Positions 2,576 through 15,134 of a stretch of DNA of 15,134 nt are shown piece by piece (the stretch's first letter is position 1; every line of letters begins with the position of its first letter). This DNA comes from a virus. Its lineage: Duplodnaviria; Heunggongvirae; Uroviricota; Caudoviricetes. A program made the position numbers and the translations under genes. Below the pieces are notes generated by a model. That model saw only the letters and a program-made list of their open reading frames with translations. It was not told the origin of the DNA and ran no database searches. The stretch is taken from IMG/VR virus record IMGVR_UViG_2648501400_000006; one strand, written 5' to 3'.

Positions 2576-3295
2576 ATGCCAACACCAAATCCCCTGGAGC
2601 CGGTAAAAGGTGCCGGTACCACCCTGTGGGTTTACAACGGCAAGGGTGACGCCTATGCAAACCCGTTGTCAGACGATGACTGGCAGCGACTGGCTAAGGT
2701 GAAGGATCTGACGCCGGGCGAGATGACGGCAGAACCCTACGATGATAACTACCTGGATGATGAAGACGCGGACTGGACCGCGACCGGGCAGGGACAGAAA
2801 TCTGCAGGAGATACCAGTTTTACACTGGCCTGGAAACCGGGAGAAGAAGGTCAGAAAGGGCTTATAGGCTGGTTTGAAAGCGGGGATGTGCGGGCCTATA
2901 AAATCCGTTTTCCGAACGGCACGGTGGATGTGTTTCGTGGCTGGATCAGCAGTATCGGTAAGGCAGTGACGGCGAAAGAAGTGATCACCCGAACAGTGAA
3001 AGTGACCAACGTGGGCAAACCTTCCGTAGCGGAAGAACGCAGCAAAATTACGCCGGCCACTGCAATTAAGGTGACACCGACATCCGGTACCGTGGAAAAA
3101 GGAAAAACAACCACCCTGACGGTTTCTTTTGAGCCGGAAAGTGCAACCGACAAGACGTTCAGAGCGGTTTCCGCCGATCCGTCAAAAGCAACCATTACTG
3201 TGAAAGATATGACAATCACGGTAAACGGCGTGAAGACAGGAAAAGTGCAGTATCCCCGTGATGACCGGAAATGGTCAGTTCGCCACAGTAGCTGA
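2576..3295 (+). CDS. V: Major tail tube protein V-like; last ~13 codons out of the ancestral frame (apparent 1-nt insertion near 3251)
   Basis: GAGGA RBS at 2567-2571. 239-aa ORF matches lambda gpV ([68 protein letters not shown]…[42 protein letters not shown]…) up to …TITVNGV.TGKV, then ends [14 protein letters not shown]. The shifted frame 3249-3329 encodes [26 protein letters not shown], which resembles the lambda gpV C-terminus (…[21 protein letters not shown]). Confidence 0.85.
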
Positions 3296-3774: not shown

Positions 3775-4214
3775 ATTTTGCCCTCAGACTGGCGCGTGAG
3801 ATGGGGAGGCCTGACTGGCGCGCCATGCTTGCCGGGATGACATCCACCGAATATGCCGACTGGCGACATTTTTACCGCACGCATTATTTTCACGATACCC
3901 AACTGGATATGCATTTTTCCGGGCTGACGTACGCCGTACTCAGCCTGTTTTTTTGCGATCCGGATATGCATCCCTCTGATTTCAGTCTGCTTGCCCCCCG
4001 GCATGAGGAAGAGCAGACGGAGAGGCCGGATGAGGAAAAAATGCTGATGCAGAAAGCGGCAGGACTTGCCGGAGGCGTCCGGTTCGGTGGGGACGGAGGG
4101 CGCGAGATTTTATCGTCTGCGGATGTGGCGGATGTCAGCGAGGATGATGCCGCATTAATGATGGCTTCAGCGGGGATTCCCGGAGGTGTGAGATATGTCC
4201 CAGCCGGTTGGTGA
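3343..4214 (+). CDS. T: Tail assembly chaperone G-T fusion made by programmed -1 ribosomal frameshift at 3750-3756
   Basis: The T-frame (frame 0) has no own start/RBS and is open from the slippery site to TGA 4212-4214; its translation (…MGRPDWRAMLAGM.STEYADW..FY.THYFHD..LDMHFSGLTY.VLSLFF.DPDMHP.DFSLL…LMQKAAGLAGGVRFG…) matches lambda gpT. Slippery heptamer G-GGA-AAG sits in the G zero frame 19 nt before the G stop. Confidence 0.8.
3750..3756 (+). promoter_or_regulatory. -1 programmed ribosomal frameshift slippery heptamer GGGAAAG (G/G-T)
   Basis: Sequence GCG GGA AAG with GGA and AAG as in-frame G codons (codon start 3751 is in frame with the G ATG at 3343); same heptamer and relative position as the lambda G-T frameshift site. 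Confidence 0.75.
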
Positions 4215-6775
4215 TCTTGTTATTGACCTGAGTCTGGATGCGGTCCGTTTCGATGAGCAGATGAGCCGGGTAAGGCGTCATTTTTCAGGACTGGAGACCG
4301 ACGCCAGAAAAACCGCCAGTGCTGTTGAACAGAACCTGAGCCGCCAGGCGCTGGCTGCACAAAAAGCCGGGATTTCCGTCGGGCAGTATAAAGCGGCCAT
4401 GCGAACCCTGCCCGCACAGTTTACGGATATCGCCACGCAGCTTGCCGGTGGTCAGAATCCCTGGCTGATCCTGCTGCAACAGGGCGGTCAGGTGAAGGAC
4501 TCCTTCGGCGGGATGATCCCCATGTTCAGGGGGCTTGCCGGTGCGATCACCCTGCCGATGGTCGGGGTCACCTCGCTGGCGGTGGCGACAGGTGCGCTGG
4601 CGTACGCCTGGTACCAGGGAGATTCCACGCTTTCAGCGTTTAATAAAACCCTGGTTCTTTCCGGTAATCAGTCCGGACTGACTGCCGATCGCATGCTGAC
4701 GCTCTCAAGAGCCGGACAGGCAGCAGGGCTGACGTTTAACCAGGCGAGAGAGTCACTGGCAGCCCTGGTGAATGCCGGTGTGCGTGGTGGTGAACAGTTT
4801 GATGCCATCAACCAGAGTGTCGCGCGTTTTGCGTCTGCATCCGGTGTGGAGGTGGACAAAGTCGCAGAAGCCTTCGGAAAACTGACCACCGACCCGACGT
4901 CGGGACTGATGGCGATGGCGCGCCAGTTCCGTAACGTGACGGCAGAGCAGATTGCGTATGTTGCACAGCTGCAGCGTTCCGGAGACGAGGCCGGGGCATT
5001 ACAGGCGGCGAACGATATCGCCACGAAAGGCTTTGATGAGCAGACCCGTCGCCTGAAAGAAAACATGGGAACACTGGAGACCTGGGCGGATAAAACAGGG
5101 AAGGCATTCAAATCGATGTGGGATGCCATTCTGGATATCGGTCGTCCTGAGTCCTCAGCGGATATGCTCGCCAGTGCACAGAAGGCATTTGATGAGGCGG
5201 ATAAAAAATGGCAGTGGTACCAGAGCCGGAGCCAGCGCCGCGGAAAAACCGCCTCTTTCCGGGCCAACCTTCAGGGCGCATGGAATGACCGGGAAAATGC
5301 CCGTCTGGGGCTGGCAGCGGCCACGCTGCAGTCGGATATGGAAAAAGCCGGTGAACTGGCCGCCAGGGACCGGGCCGAACGGGACGCATCACAGCTGAAG
5401 TATACCGGAGAGGCGCAGAAGGCGTATGAGCGTCTGCTGACGCCGCTGGAGAAATATACCGCCCGTCAGGAAGAACTGAATAAGGCACTGAAAGACGGGA
5501 AAATCCTGCAGGCAGATTACAACACGCTGATGGCGGCGGCGAAAAAGGACTATGAAGCGACGCTGAAAAAGCCGAAACAGTCAGGAGTCAAAGTGTCAGC
5601 CGGCGAGCGTCAGGAAGACCAGTGCGCATGCTGCCCTGCTGACGCTTCAAACAGAACTCCGGACGCTGGAAAAACACACCGGAGCGAATGAGAAAATCAG
5701 CCAGCAGCGTCGCGATTTATGGAAAGCGGAAAATCAGTATGCGGTCCTGAAAGAGGCAGCCACGAAACGGCAGTTATCTGAGCAGGAAAAATCCCTGCTG
5801 GCCCATGAGAAAGAGACGCTGGAGTACAAACGCCAGCTGGCTGAGCTGGGAGACAAAGTTGAACACCAGAAACGGCTGAATCAGCTGGCACAGCAGGCTG
5901 CGCGGTTTGAACAGCAGCAGAGCGCGAAGCAGGCGGCAATCAGCGCAAAAGCCCGCGGACTCACCGACCGTCAGGCGCAGCGGGAGTCGGAAGAGCAGCG
6001 CCTTCGTGACGTGTACGGTGATAATCCGGATGCGCTGGCGAAGGCCACATCTGCACTGAAGAACACCTGGTCTGCGGAGGAGCAGCTTCGTGGAAGCTGG
6101 ATGGCCGGTCTGAAGTCCGGCTGGGGCGAGTGGGCAGAAAGTGCGACGGACAGTTTTTCGCAGGTTAAAAGCGTGGCCACGCAGACCTTTGACGGTATTG
6201 CACAGAATATGGCAGCGATGCTGACCGGCAGCGAACAGAACTGGCGTGGTTTCACCCGTTCTGTGCTCTCCATGCTGACAGAGATTTTTCTGAAGCAGGC
6301 GATGGTGGGGATAGTCGGGAGTATCGGCAGCGCCATTGGCGGTGCTTTCGGTGGTGGTGCGTCTGCCTCCACGGGGACGGCCATTCAGGCTGCGGCGGCG
6401 AACTTCCATTTCGCGACCGGGGGATTTACGGGGACGGGGGGTAAATATGAACCTGCGGGAATTGTTCATCGCGGGGAGTTTGTCTTCACGAAGGAGGCAA
6501 CCAGCCGGATTGGCGTCGGCAACCTGTATCGTCTGATGCGCGGGTATGCGGAAGGTGGTTATGTGGGCGGTGCCGGAAGTCCGGCGCAGATGCGGCGGGC
6601 GGAAGGCATTAGTTTTAATCAGAACAATCACGTGGTGATTCAGAACGACGGTATCAACGGACAGGCAGGGCCGCAGCTGATGAAAGCGGTGTATGACATG
6701 GCCCGCAAGGGGGCGCAGGATGAGATTCAGGCGCAGATGCGTGATGGCGGCGTATTTTCCGGAGGCAGGCGATGA
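4195..6775 (+). pseudogene. H: Tail tape-measure protein H-like, split by an apparent +1 frameshift near 5619-5620 (N-part frame 1: 4195-5691; C-part frame 2: about 5567-6775)
   Basis: GGAGGTG RBS at 4179-4185. The 4195 ORF matches lambda gpH from the N-terminus (…VGDLV.DLSLDA.RFDEQM.RVRRHFSG…GISVGQYKAAMR.LPAQFTD.ATQLAGGQ.PWLILLQQGGQVKDSFGGMIPMFRGLAGAITLPMVG…) through …KKPKQS.VKVSAG.RQED, then reads QCACCPADASNRTPDAGKTHRSE*. Frame 2 from 5621 reads SAHAALLTLQ.ELRTLEKH.GANEKISQQRRDLWKAENQ… and continues through …AGIVHRGEFVFTKEATSRIGVGNLYRLMRGYA.GGYVG… to TGA 6773-6775, matching the lambda gpH continuation. Removing one C at 5619/5620 (GAAGAC[C]AGTGCG) restores one ORF of ~859 aa. Frame 2 has a stop at 5564-5566, so the switch must lie in 5567-5691. 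Confidence 0.75.
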
Positions 6776-7804: not shown

Positions 7805-8483
7805 ATGACACAGACAGAATCAGCGATTCTGGCGCATGCCCGGCGGTGTGTGCCTGCGGAGTCGTGCGGCTTCGTGGTGAGAACGCCGGAGGGGGAGCGG
7901 TATATCCCTTGTGTGAATATCTCTGCAGAGCCGGAGGCGTATTTTCGTATTGCACCGGAAGACTGGCTGCGGGCAGAGATGCAGGGGGAGATTGTGGCAC
8001 TGGTCCACAGTCATCCCGGTGGTCTGCCGGGGGGAAATTCATAAATTCCGCTGTGTACCACATCTGACAGGACGGCGCTTTGAGCACGGGGTGACGGACT
8101 GTTACACGCTGTTCCGGGATGCCTACCATCTGGCGGGAATTGATATGCCGGATTTTGAGCGTGAGGATGACTGGTGGCGCAACGGTCAGAACCTTTACCT
8201 GGACAATATGGCGGTCACCGGCTTTTACCGGGTGCCCCTGTCCTCTGCACAGGCGGGCGATATCCTGCTGTGCTGCTTTGGCGCATCGGTGGCCAATCAT
8301 GCCGCCATTTACTGCGGCAACGGTGAACTGCTTCACCATCTGCCTGAACAACTGAGTAAACGGGAGAGGTATTCCGAAAAATGGCAACGACGAACGCATT
8401 CTGTCTGGCGTCACCGCCACTGGCACGCATCTGCCTTCACGGGGATTTGCAACGATTTGGCCGCCGCCTCAGCCTGTATGTGA
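7805..8483 (+). pseudogene. K: Tail tip assembly protein K-like (MPN/JAMM + NlpC/P60), disrupted: N-part frame 2 (7805-8044, stop TAA 8042-8044), C-part frame 0 (about 8028-8483)
   Basis: 7805 ORF: MTQTESAILAHARRC.PAESCGFVV.TPEGERY.PCVNIS.EPEA…EDWL.AEMQGEIVALVHSHPGGLP then GGNS*. Frame 0 from ~8028: RGEIHKFRCVPHLTGRRFEHGVTDCYTLFRDAYHLAGI.MPDF.REDDWWRNGQNLYLDN…LLCCFG.SV.NHAAIYCG.GELLHH.PEQLSKRERY..KWQRRTHS.WRHR.W.ASAFTGI.NDL.AAS… ending TGA 8481-8483 and overlapping I by 103 nt. The HxH of a JAMM motif is present but the expected downstream S-x-x-D is missing; the junction coincides with a G6 run (8029-8034). From memory of lambda K, about 22 codons are absent, implying a ~65-bp out-of-frame deletion. 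Confidence 0.65.
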
Positions 8484-9251: not shown

Positions 9252-9779
9252 TTATTGAATGATGCCGCAGGCCATTCTCGCACCACCACCGCCCAGGGAC
9301 TCCGGATGGTCATGATGGTTATCACCGCCAGCATGAAGCATGAGAGAACGCCCTTTAATCTCTTTTAATGAGTTCAGTCTCGGGGCCAGGACCGGGTAGT
9401 TCGCTTTTCCGTCATGCGTCACGAACAGCGCAGGGAGGTCGCCCAGGTGTCCATCCGGAGACCAGGGGCCAAGATGTTTGCCGGTGTTTTTCGGGTCAAA
9501 GTGACCGCCAGCCGATAATGCTGCGACCGGTTTTCCGTCTTTCAGTGCCGGGGCGCAATTTCCTTTTTCGTGCACATGAAAACCATGAATGCCTTCAGAC
9601 AGAGAGTGAAGGGCTGGTGTGAACAGCAGACCGTAGGGGGTCTCCTGAATGGTTATTTTTCCAATGCTGACTTCTTTTCCGTCAGCACTGACAAGGTTCA
9701 TTGGGACTTCCTGTTCTGCTGCGTATCCGCATGATGCTGCTGTCAGCATGGCAATAGCAGCAATGATTTTACATTTCAT
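9252..9779 (-). CDS. sodC: Periplasmic Cu,Zn superoxide dismutase (prophage-encoded SodC)
   Basis: Minus-strand ORF; chosen start is the ATG at 9777-9779 ([20 protein letters not shown]… signal-peptide-like N-terminus) with GAGGA RBS 4 nt upstream. Translation contains hallmark Cu,Zn-SOD motifs (…[22 protein letters not shown]…AGGHFDP..TGKH.GP…[14 protein letters not shown]…APRL.SL.EIKG.SLM.H.GGDN..D.P..LGGGGAR.ACGIIQ). The longer 9252-10286 ORF in the track is an upstream read-through without support. Confidence 0.9.
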
Positions 9780-9912: not shown

Positions 9913-12900
9913 ATGGGCAAAGGTGGCGGCAGGGCGCACACGCCTCGAGAGGCGAAGGATAATCTCAAATCCACGCAGATGATGAGTGTGATTGATGCGA
10001 TTGGTGAGGGACCGATAGAAGGCCCGGTGAAGGGGCTGCAGAGTATCCTGGTGAACAAAACCCCGCTGACGGACACGGACGGCAATCCTGTGATACACGG
10101 TGTGACCGCGGTCTGGCGCGCCGGGGAGCAGGAGCAGACACCACCGGAAGGCTTTGAGTCCTCCGGAGCTGAAACCGGACTGGGCGTGGAAGTGACGAAG
10201 GCAAAGCCGGTAACGCGCACCATTACATCCGCGAACATTGACCGCCTGCGGGTCACCTTCGGGGTGCAGTCACTGTTGGAGACCACCTCAAAGGGCGACC
10301 GTAATCCCTCTTCTGTCCGACTGCTGATTCAGTTGCAGCGTAACGGTAACTGGGTGACGGAAAAGGATGTCACCATTAACGGCAGGACCACCTCACAGTA
10401 CCTGGCGTCGGTGATTCTGGAGAATCTGCCTGAGCGGCCCTTTAACATCCGGATGGTCCGGGAGACAGCGGACAGCACCTCGGACCAGCTGCAGAATAAG
10501 ACGCTCTGGTCGTCATACACCGAAATCATCGATGTGAAACAGTGCTACCCGAACACGGCGATTGTGGGGCTGCAGGTGGATGCGGAGCAGTTTGGCGGTC
10601 AGCAGATGACGGTGAACTACCATATCCGAGGTCGCATCATCCAGGTGCCGTCAAACTATGACCCGGAAAAACGCACGTACAGCGGCATCTGGGACGGCAG
10701 CCTGAAACCGGCATACAGCAACAACCCGGCCTGGTGCCTGTGGGACATGCTGACTCACCCGCGCTACGGCATGGGAAAACGTCTGGGGGCGGCAGACGTG
10801 GACAAATGGGCGCTGTATGCCATCGGGCAGTACTGCGACCAGACGGTCCCGGATGGTTTCGGGGGCACAGAGCCGCGGATGACCTTTAATGCGTACCTGT
10901 CACAACAGCGTAAGGCATGGGATGTGCTCAGTGATTTCTGCTCGGCGATGCGATGTATGCCGGTATGGAACGGCCAGACGCTGACGTTCGTTCAGGACCG
11001 CCCGTCGGATGTGGTGTGGCCGTACACCAACTGCGATGTGGTGGTGGATGATAACGGCGTGGGGTTTCGCTACAGCTTCAGCGCCCTGAAGGACCGCCAC
11101 ACGGCGGTGGAGGTGAATTACACCGACCCGCAGAACGGCTGGCAGACCTCCACGGAACTGGTGGAAGACCCGGAAGCCATACTGCGCTACGGGCGCAACC
11201 TGCTGAAGATGGATGCGTTCGGTTGCACCAGTCGCGGTCAGGCCCACCGTGCCGGGCTGTGGGTGATAAAGACCGGACTGCTGGAAACGCAGACGGTGGA
11301 TTTCACGCTCGGGTCACAGGGGCTGCGTCACACACCCGGTGACATTATTGAAATCTGTGATAACGACTATGCCGGGACCATGACCGGCGGACGTATCCTG
11401 TCCATCGATGCCGCCAGCCGCACCCTGACACTGGACCGTGAGGTGACCCTGCCGGAGACAGGTGCCGCCACGGTGAACCTGATTAACGGCAGCGGTAAGC
11501 CGGTGAGCGTGGCCATCACTGCACACCCCGCGCCGGACCGGATACAGGTCAGCACCCTGCCTGATGGTGTGGAGACATACGGTGTATGGGGACTCTCCCT
11601 GCCGTCACTACGTCGTCGCCTGTTCCGCTGTGTCTCCATCCGGGAAAACACGGACGGCACCTTTGCCATCACGGCGGTGCAGCACGTACCGGAAAAAGAA
11701 GCCATTGTGGATAACGGGGCCAGCTTTGAGCCACTGTCCGGTTCGCTGAACAGCGTCATCCCGCCGGCTGTGCAGCACCTGACGGTGGAGGTGAGCGCGG
11801 CTGACGGTCAGTATCTGGCACAGGCGAAATGGGACACGCCGCGGGTGGTGAAGGGTGTGCGCTTCAGTCTGCGCCTGACCAACGGAAGCGGAGAAGACAG
11901 CCGTCTGGTGACCACCGCCATCACTGCGGATACAGAGCATCGTTTCAGTGGTCTGCCGCTCGGGGAATACACCCTGACAGTCAGGGCAATTAACAGTTAT
12001 GGCCAGCAGGGCGAACCGGCCACCACCACCTTCCGGATTAACGCGCCAGCAAAACCCGCCACCATTGAACTGACGCCGGGGTATTTTCAGATAACGGCGG
12101 TCCCGCGTCTTGCGGTGTATGACCCGACGGTACAGTTTGAGTTCTGGTTTTCGGAGGCAAAAATCGCAGACACATCTCAGGTGGAAACCTCTGCCCGTTA
12201 TCTGGGGACCGGCAGTCAGTGGAGTGTATCCGGCCCGCACATTAAGCCCGGGAAGGATTTCTGGTTTTACGTGCGCAGCGTCAACCTGGTGGGGAAATCT
12301 GCGTTTGTGGAAGTCAGCGGGCAGCCCAGCAATGATGGTGAAGGGTATCTGGAATTTTTCCGGGAAAAAATAGGAAAACTGCATCTGGCTCAGGGGCTAT
12401 GGGAGCTGATAGACAACAGCCAGCTTGCGGATGAGATGGCGGAGATGAAGACCACCATCACCGAAACCCGCAATGAAATCACACAGACGGTCAGTAAAAC
12501 GCTGGAAGACCAGAGCGCCACCATTCAGCAGATACAGCGCGTGCAGAAGGACACAAATGATGACCTGGCTGCGCTGTACATGCTGAAGGTTCAAAAAACG
12601 AAAGACGGCATTCCCTATGTGGCCGGGATTGGTGCAGGGATTGAGGATACTGATGGCCAGCCACTGAGCAACATACTGCTGCTGGCTGACCGTATCGCGA
12701 TGATAAATCCGGAGAGCGGCAACAGCACTCCGTTATTTGTGGCGCAGGGGAATCAGCTGTTCATGAACGACGTGTTCCTGAAGCGTCTGTTTGCGGCGAG
12801 TATCACGTCATCCGGCAACCCCCCGACGTTTTCCCTGACGCCGGAAGGGAAGCTGACAGCCAGGAACGCGGATATCAGCGGAGCAATTACCGCGAATACC

Positions 12901-13389
12901 GGCACGCTCAATAATGTCACCATTAACGAGAACTGTGTCATCAGAGGGAAACTGTCTGCAAACCAGATTGAAGGCGACCTGGTGAAGACGGTGGGGAAAG
13001 CCTTTCCCCGGAATAACAGTTATGCCAGCGGGACGGTAACCGTCACAGTTTACGATGACCAGGGCTTCGACCGGCAGATTATCATTCCCCCGGTGCTGTT
13101 TCGCGGGACGAAACACCAGAATTTCAACAGCCCGAATCAGCAGTCGTACTGGTATTCCACCTGTAAGCTGCAGGTGCTGAAGAACGGGGTTGAGATTTTC
13201 CATGAACCGGCAACGGATGTCAGCCGGGTGTTCTCATCGGTGATAGATATGCCGGCAGGGCGGGGTCATGTCACCCTGACGTTTAATGTGTCGTCGGCCG
13301 GTGCGAACAACTGGACGCCGACAACGTACATCAGTGATTTACTGGTTGTGGTCATGAAAAAATCCACGGCAGGGATCAGTATCAGCTGA
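9913..13389 (+). CDS. J: Tail tip / host-specificity protein J-like (central tail fibre)
   Basis: 1158 aa; GAGAGGAA RBS at 9901-9908; N-terminus MGKG…[35 protein letters not shown]… and long stretches (…[52 protein letters not shown]…[34 protein letters not shown]…[32 protein letters not shown]…[17 protein letters not shown]…) match lambda gpJ; the C-terminal ~150 aa diverge. Confidence 0.9.
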
Positions 13390-13408
13390 CGGTTTATTAA
13401 CCCGGACG

Positions 13409-13432
13409 GGCACCTCAGGAGGTGCCTTTTTT
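13409..13432 (+). terminator. Intrinsic terminator after J (stem 13409-13415/13420-13426, loop CAGG, T6 at 13427-13432)
   Basis: GGCACCT-CAGG-AGGTGCC-TTTTTT read directly, 20 nt after the J stop. Confidence 0.6.
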
Positions 13433-13457: not shown

Positions 13458-14081
13458 ATGCGGCATTTATACGCAACGATATTATTGTTTACTACCCTGC
13501 TGGCAGGAATTGCCTTTCCTGCACAGGCTGAAAGCGGACACGGTGCATTTTCCGTGGGATATGCTCAGGTTCACCCGGGCGGCGTACCGGCATTGTCCGG
13601 TACCGGTGCGCGTGCAGGTGATTTAAAAGGGATTAATGTGAAATACCGTTATGAGTTCACGGATCACCTGGGCGGCATTGTCGCGCTGAGTTATGCATCG
13701 GTGAAGAAAAGTGACACGATGAAGACGGGTGAAAATACCTTCCATTATGAAAGCCTGCGCGGTCGTTATGTCAGTCTGATGGCCGGCCCTGTCTGGCAGC
13801 TCAGTGAGCGGGTCAGTCTCTATGGCATGGCCGGGATGGCGTACACCCGCTGGTCTGACAGTGTTCAGGATTACCGGCGTGATGAAGTGAAACCGGGGTA
13901 TGTGAAGGAGACCACCACCGCCAGTGATGGTCATACTGCGCGTCATCTGTCGCCGGCCTGGAATGCCGGGATTCAGTTCAGTCCCGTAGAGACGGTGGTT
14001 ATTGACCTTGCTTATGAAGGTTCCGGCAGTGGCGACTGGCGCACTGACGGTTTCATCGTGGGTGTCGGCTATAAATTCTGA
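13458..14081 (+). CDS. lom: Lom outer-membrane protein (Ail/Lom/PagC family)
   Basis: ATG at 13458 with GAGG RBS (13448-13451); signal peptide MRHLYATILLFTTLLAGIAFPAQA; …GINVKYRYEFTD.LG…MAGP…YEGSGSGDWRTDGFIVGVGYKF matches lambda Lom including the identical C-terminus. The upstream GTG at 13422 lies inside the J terminator and was not chosen. Confidence 0.9.
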   Translation: MRHLYATILLFTTLLAGIAFPAQAESGHGAFSVGYAQVHPGGVPALSGTGARAGDLKGINVKYRYEFTDHLGGIVALSYASVKKSDTMKTGENTFHYESLRGRYVSLMAGPVWQLSERVSLYGMAGMAYTRWSDSVQDYRRDEVKPGYVKETTTASDGHTARHLSPAWNAGIQFSPVETVVIDLAYEGSGSGDWRTDGFIVGVGYKF

Positions 14082-14107: not shown

Positions 14108-14134
14108 AGCCCGCCGGTTCAGGCGGGCTTTTTT
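14108..14134 (+). terminator. Intrinsic terminator after lom (stem AGCCCGCC/GGCGGGCT, loop GGTTCA, T-tract 14130-14134)
   Basis: Perfect 8-bp GC-rich inverted repeat followed by TTTTT(T), 27 nt after the lom stop. Confidence 0.6.
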
Positions 14135-14145
14135 GTGGGGTGAAT

Positions 14146-15134
14146 ATGGCAGTAAAGATTTCAGGTGTACTGAAAGACGGCACAGGAAAACCGGTACAGA
14201 ACTGCACCATTCAACTGAAAGCCAGACGGACCAGCACCACGGTGGTGGTGAACACGCTGGCCTCAGAAAATCCGGATGAAGCCGGGCGTTACAGCATGGA
14301 CGTTGAGTACGGTCAGTACAGCGTTATTCTGTTGGTGGAAGGGTTCCCGCCGTCACATGCCGGGACCATCACCGTGTATGAAGATTCTCAACCCGGTACG
14401 CTGAATGATTTTCTCGGTGCCATGACGGAGGAGGATGCCCGGCCGGAGGCACTGCGCCGTTTTGAACAGATGGTGGAAGAGGTGGCGCGTCACGCTGAGG
14501 AGGCGAAGAAGAATGCCGGAGAGGCGGAGACGTCAGCGAGGAATGCCGGCATATCAGCCAGTCAGGCAGAAGAGAGCGCTGCAAATGCTGACACTTCAGC
14601 AGGGGAGGCATCGGAGTCAGCCCGGCAGGCGGCAGAAAGTGCAGCCTCAGCAAAGCAGTCAGAGGATGCGTCCTCGTCCTCGGCTTCTGCGGCCGCTCAA
14701 AAAGCCAGTGAGTCATCACAAAGTGCAGCAGAAGCTGAATTGTCAAGAAAGACGGCAGAAAGTGCAGCCGGTAATGCAGCCAGGGATGCAACGACCGCAA
14801 CAGAAAAAGCCCGGGAGTCAGCAGAAAGCGCACAGTCAGCGGAACAAAGCAGGATAGCGGCGGAAGAGGCCGTAAACCGAATCCCCACCGTGGTGGGACC
14901 TCCCGGGCCAAAGGGGGAACAGGGGCCCGCGGGTCCTCAGGGGCCGAAGGGTGATAAGGGAGAGCGCGGTGACACCGGCCCTGTCGGGGCAACCGGCGAA
15001 CGGGGACCGGCAGGTGATGCTGGTCCGGCAGGCCCGCAGGGGCCGAAAGGTGACAGGGGAGAGCGGGGAGAGACCGGTCTGACGGGAAATGCAGGTCCAC
15101 AGGGTCCAAAGGGAGATACCGGTGCGGCAGGCCC
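14146..15134 (+). CDS. stf: Side tail fibre protein Stf-like, 3'-truncated by window edge; carries collagen-like Gly-X-Y repeats
   Basis: Translated by hand (not in the ORF track because no stop lies within the window): [111 protein letters not shown]… is near-identical to the lambda Stf N-terminus; followed by an Ala/Ser/Glu-rich low-complexity segment and, from 14896, [79 protein letters not shown]…. Confidence 0.85.
14896..15134 (+). repeat. Collagen-like triplet repeat (GGN-NNN-NNN)n coding region inside stf
   Basis: At least 26 consecutive Gly-X-Y triplets in frame with stf, continuing to the window end; this also creates the long Pro-rich shadow ORF on the opposite strand (14369-15109). 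Confidence 0.85.

Follow-up and report, generated by a model that had tools for sequence, protein, structure and literature searches.

The viral DNA analysed here (15,134 nt in all, hereafter the window) ends in a stretch encoding a collagen-like Gly-X-Y repeat, which raises the question of what kind of protein carries this repeat and what that protein does for the phage. An earlier reading made from the sequence alone (the sequence-only reading) had placed the repeat in a homologue of stf, the side tail fibre gene of phage lambda. We are highly confident that the window holds the 5′ three-quarters of a prophage side tail fibre gene of the EPclA type, the product of which would be trimeric, would dock on the tail in the manner of lambda Stf, and would consist of a collagen shaft ending in a C-terminal knob.

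The Gly-X-Y repeat and its reading frame

The fibre gene starts on the plus strand with an ATG at position 14146 and is still open at the end of the window (14146..15134), where 989 nt, that is 329 codons and two further nucleotides, can be translated. From residue 251 (nt 14896), the translation passes through 26 unbroken Gly-X-Y triplets and the glycine of a 27th before the window ends (14896..15134, + strand; residues 251–329 and beyond). Thus, the run of at least 26 triplets from position 14896 that the sequence-only reading had found in the stf frame was confirmed by translation, and the same frame is upheld by a Pfam match and by codon-position-3 bias as described below. Because glycine makes up just 5.2% of residues 1–250, the chance of 27 in-register glycines is about 2e-35, and a six-frame scan of the 15-kb window found no second Gly-X-Y run of at least 5 triplets. 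The HMM search for collagen repeats that had been suggested with the earlier reading returned PF01391 (Collagen) on the window fragment alone (52.0 bits against a cut-off of 27.2, E 5.8e-14), and the score rose to 65.2 bits on a full-length homologue. Proline accounts for 16.5% of the collagen segment and occupies 12 of the 26 X positions, and the Y position is mostly taken by Ala, Lys, Thr, Gln or Arg. The segment had been called rich in Pro, Lys, Glu and Arg, which holds for proline but not for the other three, as Lys, Glu and Arg (5–6% each) are no commoner than Ala (10%) or Asp and Thr (6% each).

The GC content of the collagen segment is 70.7%, compared with 56.4% for the window, and a long antisense ORF (14369-15109, 246 aa) exists at the same place. 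It could therefore be argued that the Gly-X-Y periodicity is a by-product of a GC-rich repeat and that the antisense ORF encodes the real product. However, three strong Pfam domains lie in the plus frame, and nucleotide differences from relatives fall mostly on its third codon position: 20 of 27 differences from the Stx1a_10012 fibre (L004), including 10 of the 11 in the collagen part, and 23 of 34 from the gene of ECs2717, the EPclA reference protein introduced below (5 of 6 in the collagen part). Since the differences from these diverged relatives fall mostly on codon position 3, the plus frame is the selected one. In addition, all length variants of the repeat are variants of the plus frame, the EPclA protein has been expressed and characterised (PMC3368898), and the 246-aa antisense product gave no Pfam match. 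We rejected this ORF as a by-product of a stop-poor repeat of 70.7% GC, and the probability that it is the real product is negligible.

A fibre of the EPclA type

EPclA (EHEC prophage collagen-like protein A) was described by Ghosh et al. in 2012 (PLoS One 7:e37872; PMC3368898), who distinguished four architectures among the collagen-like proteins of EHEC prophages and assigned to EPclA the order PfN-PCoil-Col-PfC. The protein is typically 437 aa long, with a PCoil of 116 aa and a Col of 111 aa; each O157:H7 genome has it in seven or eight prophages, and the reference protein is ECs2717 of prophage Sp14 in E. coli O157:H7 Sakai (PMC3368898). Collagen-like fibres of prophages from pathogenic E. 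coli, which the sequence-only reading had described as known, are indeed the subject of that study, and the window protein is identical to ECs2717 at 314 of 329 residues (95%; 15 substitutions, no gaps), and at 78 of 79 in the collagen part.

The domain boundaries of the two proteins also agree (PfN 1–133/140, PCoil to residue 250, Col from residue 251). In the window, residues 1–133 (14146..14544, +) match PF08400, Phage_tail_N, which is the PfN of Ghosh et al. (E 1.4e-69), and on the window fragment this N-terminal domain of EPclA scores 232.7 bits against a cut-off of 26.6. Residues 134–250 (14545..14895, +) are assigned to the PCoil by composition and by the match of the published PfN-PCoil reverse primer. 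The Ala/Ser/Glu-rich segment noticed earlier in front of the repeat was found here with 31.6% Ala, 20.5% Ser and 13.7% Glu, next to published values of 32/19/13% for the PCoil (PMC3368898). Two cloning primers of Ghosh et al. have exact counterparts in the window, the forward primer at 14146-14163 and the PfN-PCoil reverse primer at 14884-14895. The window copy differs from ECs2717 in its setting, which is a prophage where the V-, H- and K-like genes are disrupted (see below).

Database annotation points the same way. PHROG 3279 (tail fiber) matches the window fibre with E 5.6e-138, and 437-aa genes with 99.4% DNA identity to the window fibre are annotated as 'prophage tail fiber N-terminal domain-containing protein'. 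NCBIfam supplied no family name, because its only matches, to collagen adhesins and to TolA low-complexity sequence, were all sub-threshold. By its sequence, the window protein is an EPclA-type collagen-like side tail fibre, a protein type that has been known and characterised since 2012.

The published work on the recombinant protein describes a close homologue. Recombinant EPclA is trimeric by AUC and SEC-MALLS and gives a collagen CD signal that melts at 42 °C, and a separate alpha-helical coiled-coil transition is seen at about 52 °C (PMC3368898). Two modules act in trimerisation, PfC alone and PfN-PCoil, the latter being trimeric and alpha-helical, and rotary-shadowing EM shows EPclA as a hinged dumbbell of 50–62 nm (PMC3368898).

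Attachment to the tail

The N-terminus had been read as similar to lambda Stf, and this was borne out both by structure and by gene order. Residues 1–94 (14146..14427, +) correspond to the tail-docking domain (beta-sheet and helix) of Ur-lambda gpStfN, matching the 'Tail fiber protein' of PDB 9E7M/9MGH with E 1e-50; identity to lambda Stf is 93.6% over these residues and about 90% over residues 1–116. The gene follows J (9913-13389) and the Ail/Lom outer-membrane gene lom (13458-14081; PF06316, E 8.5e-51), giving the order J-lom-fibre as in lambda. In Ur-lambda, gpStfN is made of a six-stranded beta-sheet and a helix, and twelve copies of it build a collar where the tail tube meets the tip (PMC12617516). 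Four trimeric side fibres extend from this collar; they bind OmpC and speed adsorption before J engages LamB (PMC12617516). Because of the N-terminal homology together with the J-lom-fibre gene order, docking of the window fibre on the tail as lambda Stf does is well supported, and an accessory role in adsorption may be inferred by analogy.

The resemblance to lambda Stf extends to an Ala/Ser-rich helical region after the docking domain, and it ends there. The distal part of lambda Stf has Pf2 repeats and an OmpC-binding tip and needs the Tfa chaperone, whereas that of the EPclA type is a collagen helix with a PfC knob, and its relatives are without an intact tfa. The earlier statement that lambda Stf lacks a collagen part proved right: a scan of all frames of lambda from J through lom and stf to tfa found no Gly-X-Y run of at least 5 triplets, and the tblastn match of lambda to the full-length fibre stops at residue 116.

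The surroundings of lom and J hold some further features. A terminator-like GC-rich hairpin with a T-run was found by consensus scan downstream of lom on the plus strand (14108-14137); this site, also given as 14108-14129, ends 17 nt before the fibre start codon. A second terminator-like site lies at 13408-13427 (+), and these two consensus matches bracket lom, in a layout that resembles the classic self-contained 'moron'. The fibre gene behind the hairpin is presumably read by antiterminated late transcription. The tail operon also includes sodC, a cargo ('moron') gene for Cu/Zn superoxide dismutase (PF00080, E 1.3e-31), which lies on the minus strand at 9252-9779 with the I-like tail assembly gene on one side and J on the other; relatives have the same annotation.

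The N-terminus also bears on a different function for the collagen segment, namely that of a bacterial surface adhesin or a mimic of host collagen, as in streptococcal Scl1/Scl2 and Legionella Lcl, and not of a virion shaft. With these proteins and with Bacillus BclA, the window protein shares an unhydroxylated prokaryotic Gly-X-Y triple helix, predicted in its own case, joined to a C- or N-terminal trimerisation domain. The NCBIfam models for Lcl, SclB and SclA are similar to its Gly-X-Y part (E 2.6e-25 to 1e-18), and in the relatives the prophage lies among virulence genes (lom, sodC and type III secretion effectors). However, the scores of these models (88.9 bits against 500, 77.3 against 325 and 68.3 against 400) fall far below their cut-offs and cover only the low-complexity repeat. 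The protein differs from Scl1/Scl2, Lcl and BclA in being a virion component without a secretion signal or a cell-wall anchor; its N-terminus is a tail-docking domain solved in the virion, not a signal peptide, and its gene stands in the late tail operon after J and lom. On the sub-cut-off scores and the virion docking N-terminus the adhesin was rejected, and we regard it as very improbable.

The complete gene and its downstream region

The C-terminal 108 residues of the fibre, which would comprise 11 triplets and PfC, lie beyond the window and are described here from relatives. Many complete E. coli genomes have loci with 99.4% identity to the last 1.7 kb of the window, and Stx1a- and Stx2a-converting phages match this part at 98%. 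In the visible gene, 9 of 987 nt differ from the best relative and the ORF is intact; the collagen part has a single mismatch in 239 nt to locus L001. The full gene in near-identical prophages measures 1,314 nt (437 aa), and in these homologues the collagen forms one domain of 37 triplets (residues 251–361). Next comes PF06820 ('prophage tail fibre C-terminus'), a knob of 64 aa found at residues 363–426 of the L001 gene (E 6.5e-36). The expectation that the domain continues past the window is supported by the 99.4%-identical loci, which have 11 more triplets and then PF06820. This knob was present in 22 of the 23 complete EPclA-type relatives in the IMG/VR sample, the exception being L024, where the C-terminus is frameshifted.

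A tfa gene had been expected downstream, and this expectation fails in the relatives, because there the fibre gene is followed by an ORF with PF06820 only, and then by effector genes and a tfa remnant. The ORF encodes 89 aa, always begins 2 nt after the fibre stop and carries a second PF06820 (E 5e-36; PHROG 576). It was located at 8062-8331 in L001, 20524-20793 in L003, 2672-2941 in L005 and 3072-3341 in L007, which corresponds to a place downstream of the window end, and it shares 40% identity with the fibre's own knob. Mondal et al. reported that the copy of this ORF in phage Sp5 is non-essential and proposed that it is a reservoir for tip variation (PMC5155283). Further downstream of the fibre module in the closest relatives (L001 8508-11665 and L003 20970-24127), we observed the T3SS effector genes nleB2, nleC (truncated), nleH (frameshifted) and nleF, together with a remnant of a tail-fibre assembly gene.

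Variation in shaft length

The sequence-only reading had supposed that the repeat number would be variable and recombinogenic and had proposed a comparison of copy number among related prophages. The comparison supports this view: counts of 21, 27, 36, 37 and 38 triplets were found, always in frame, and the variation is modest. Among the complete EPclA-type fibres of IMG/VR, 17 of 23 have 37 triplets, two have 38, one has 36 and three have 27. Phage YYZ-2008 has 21 triplets and Stx1a_10012 has 38, and the tables of Ghosh et al. list collagen lengths of 63–144 residues, up to 48 triplets (PMC3368898).

Two kinds of change were recognised. First, the 38-triplet form has three tandem copies of the 9-nt unit GGCAGGCCC instead of two, and TRF reports the same 9-nt tandem in another register, CGGCAGGCC, with 100% identity. 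Second, in the short shaft of YYZ-2008, 144 nt have been cleanly removed between two copies of GGGACCG, a 7-nt microhomology. To judge from these alignments, the shaft changes in whole triplets, either through slippage of the 9-nt tandem or through loss of the sequence between short repeats. The segment also contains longer imperfect internal repeats: two copies of a 45-nt unit are 82% identical, and a 56-nt block recurs at a spacing of 99 nt with 80% identity.

Some individual relatives deviate in other ways. In L033 (IMG/VR 2526164594_000035), the protein has 400 aa and the collagen begins at residue 244 instead of 251; its PCoil is shorter by exactly one heptad (7 residues), in agreement with the heptad-multiple differences of Ghosh et al. 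(PMC3368898). In the Stx1_699 fibre (L002 4748-6061), residue 254, in the second triplet, is changed from Gly to Glu (GPPEPK), and because this breaks the first repeat, the unbroken run starts at residue 257.

The collagen repeat may also affect where assembled sequences end. The window ends (15134) inside the 9-nt tandem GGCAGGCCC, the copy number of which differs among relatives. Among the IMG/VR contigs, L035 stops within the first triplets of the repeat (...GPPGPKG) and L023 inside the knob. As a genome can have as many as 16 copies, the fibre gene probably breaks assemblies often, and its multi-copy, GC-rich collagen repeat is a likely site for this.

It is tempting to see in these variants a functional tuning of shaft length, and in the 89-aa PfC-only ORF a candidate alternative tip that changes receptor specificity, but we hold this to be unlikely and offer it as speculation. 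If it were true, the triplet variants (21–38) would match the reach of the fibre to the depth of the host O-antigen or capsule, and the 89-aa tip would either replace the fibre's own knob through recombination or join the trimer during assembly.

Distribution, mosaicism and receptor

When the 437-aa protein was used as a tblastn query against 50,697 phage records, full-length matches were obtained in 141, mostly long-tailed Stx1a, Stx2a and Stx2c phages. Short-tailed Stx2 phages matched over residues 249–437 only, with 93–95% identity, and lambda and many other lambdoid phages over residues 1–116 only. By these matches, the gene is a mosaic of a lambda-type N-terminus and a collagen-plus-knob cassette, the latter also present in the lateral fibres of the short-tailed phages. 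Of 5,426 complete E. coli genomes, 4,804 have the N-terminal module, but the collagen-type gene is represented over at least 80% of its length in only 693 (about 13%), with up to 16 matching places per genome.

The counterpart in the short-tailed phages is EPclB (933W L0121, Sp5 ORF67/ECs1228, phi24B gp61). Its last collagen domain and PfC knob are 93–95% identical to those of the EPclA type, and the 89-aa PfC-only ORF is also the next one downstream. It differs in its N-terminus, which is a podovirus nozzle/adaptor attachment domain, in its total length of 645 aa, and in having two or three collagen segments split by a Pf2 repeat. The EPclB fibre has been placed at the tail ends by immuno-EM, and its deletion abolishes the infectivity of Sp5 (PMC5155283). 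For phi24B, a cryo-EM preprint (10.64898/2026.04.10.717836) resolves the N-terminus of gp61 only and gives the rest as a prediction, a long flexible collagen-like shaft with a small C-terminal globular domain.

Whether the homologous knob binds BamA is disputed. The closely related lateral fibres of phage lambda_2B8 reportedly do not recognise BamA, as relayed in the phi24B preprint (10.64898/2026.04.10.717836), and the lambda_2B8 fibre has 95.4% identity to the window fibre. In phi330, a long-tailed EHEC phage, OmpC was assigned to the J-like central fibre; this report on long-tailed EHEC phages makes no mention of the collagen-type side fibre (PMC12502783).

State of the prophage copy

The intact prophage L003, which is the best whole-window match (98.2–98.9% identity), was used as the reference for lesions in the window. 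First, an additional T at 3251 leaves the major-tail V-like gene (2576..3295) with 239 aa, compared with 250 aa in L003. Second, an additional T at 5623 splits the tape-measure H-like gene (4195..6775) into ORFs of 498 and 254 aa. Third, the K-like C40 peptidase gene (7805..) has lost 65 nt out of frame, at about 8020-8028, and the deletion is flanked by 9-nt direct repeats. Both single-nucleotide insertions, at 3251 and 5623, are outside homopolymers.

If these lesions are real, the prophage would be without a tail of its own, and its fibre gene would be idle or available to co-resident phages only. The gene could then be a relic, kept as stock for recombination or borrowed by co-resident lambdoid prophages, and the presence of up to 16 matching places per genome and of several frame-lost EPclA copies in O157 (Table 2 of Ghosh et al.; PMC3368898) would fit such a history. 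However, the visible fibre ORF is intact, as noted above, and the lesions may be errors of sequencing or assembly. Furthermore, lambda tolerates loss of the C-terminal Ig-like part of V, which also counts against a tail defect from the first lesion. We regard the relic as a real possibility that is nevertheless somewhat doubtful, and it bears on the activity of the gene in this host, not on the identity or mechanism of the protein, which is still read here as an EPclA-type side tail fibre.

Proposed working of the fibre

On the basis of the homologies above, we propose that three chains would assemble into one fibre. The N-terminal ~94 residues of each chain would dock on the collar, of which the 12 copies in Ur-lambda anchor four trimeric fibres, and residues ~100–250 would form a trimeric, Ala/Ser/Glu-rich alpha-helical coiled coil. 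A flexible hinge would follow, and then the Gly-X-Y collagen triple helix, for which a rise of 0.286 nm per residue predicts about 32 nm in the 437-aa form (111 collagen residues) and about 23 nm for the 79 residues in the window. The 64-aa PF06820 knob at the C-terminus, beyond the window, would trimerise and may nucleate folding of the triple helix from that end, and it may also contact a putative receptor on the cell surface. Finally, a long and hinged shaft could widen the reach of the virion and speed reversible adsorption before J binds, like the Stf of Ur-lambda.

In conclusion, the collagen-like repeat at the end of the window belongs, with high confidence, to an EPclA-type side tail fibre. 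The discovery value of this result is small, as the domain plan, the trimeric collagen helix and the length polymorphism were all published in 2012. From the practical side, a GC-rich repeat present in many copies is likely to break or collapse in assemblies. For annotation, the result is useful in that it assigns the window to a lambda-like prophage of EHEC/EPEC type, of which it is the head-tail-fibre arm.
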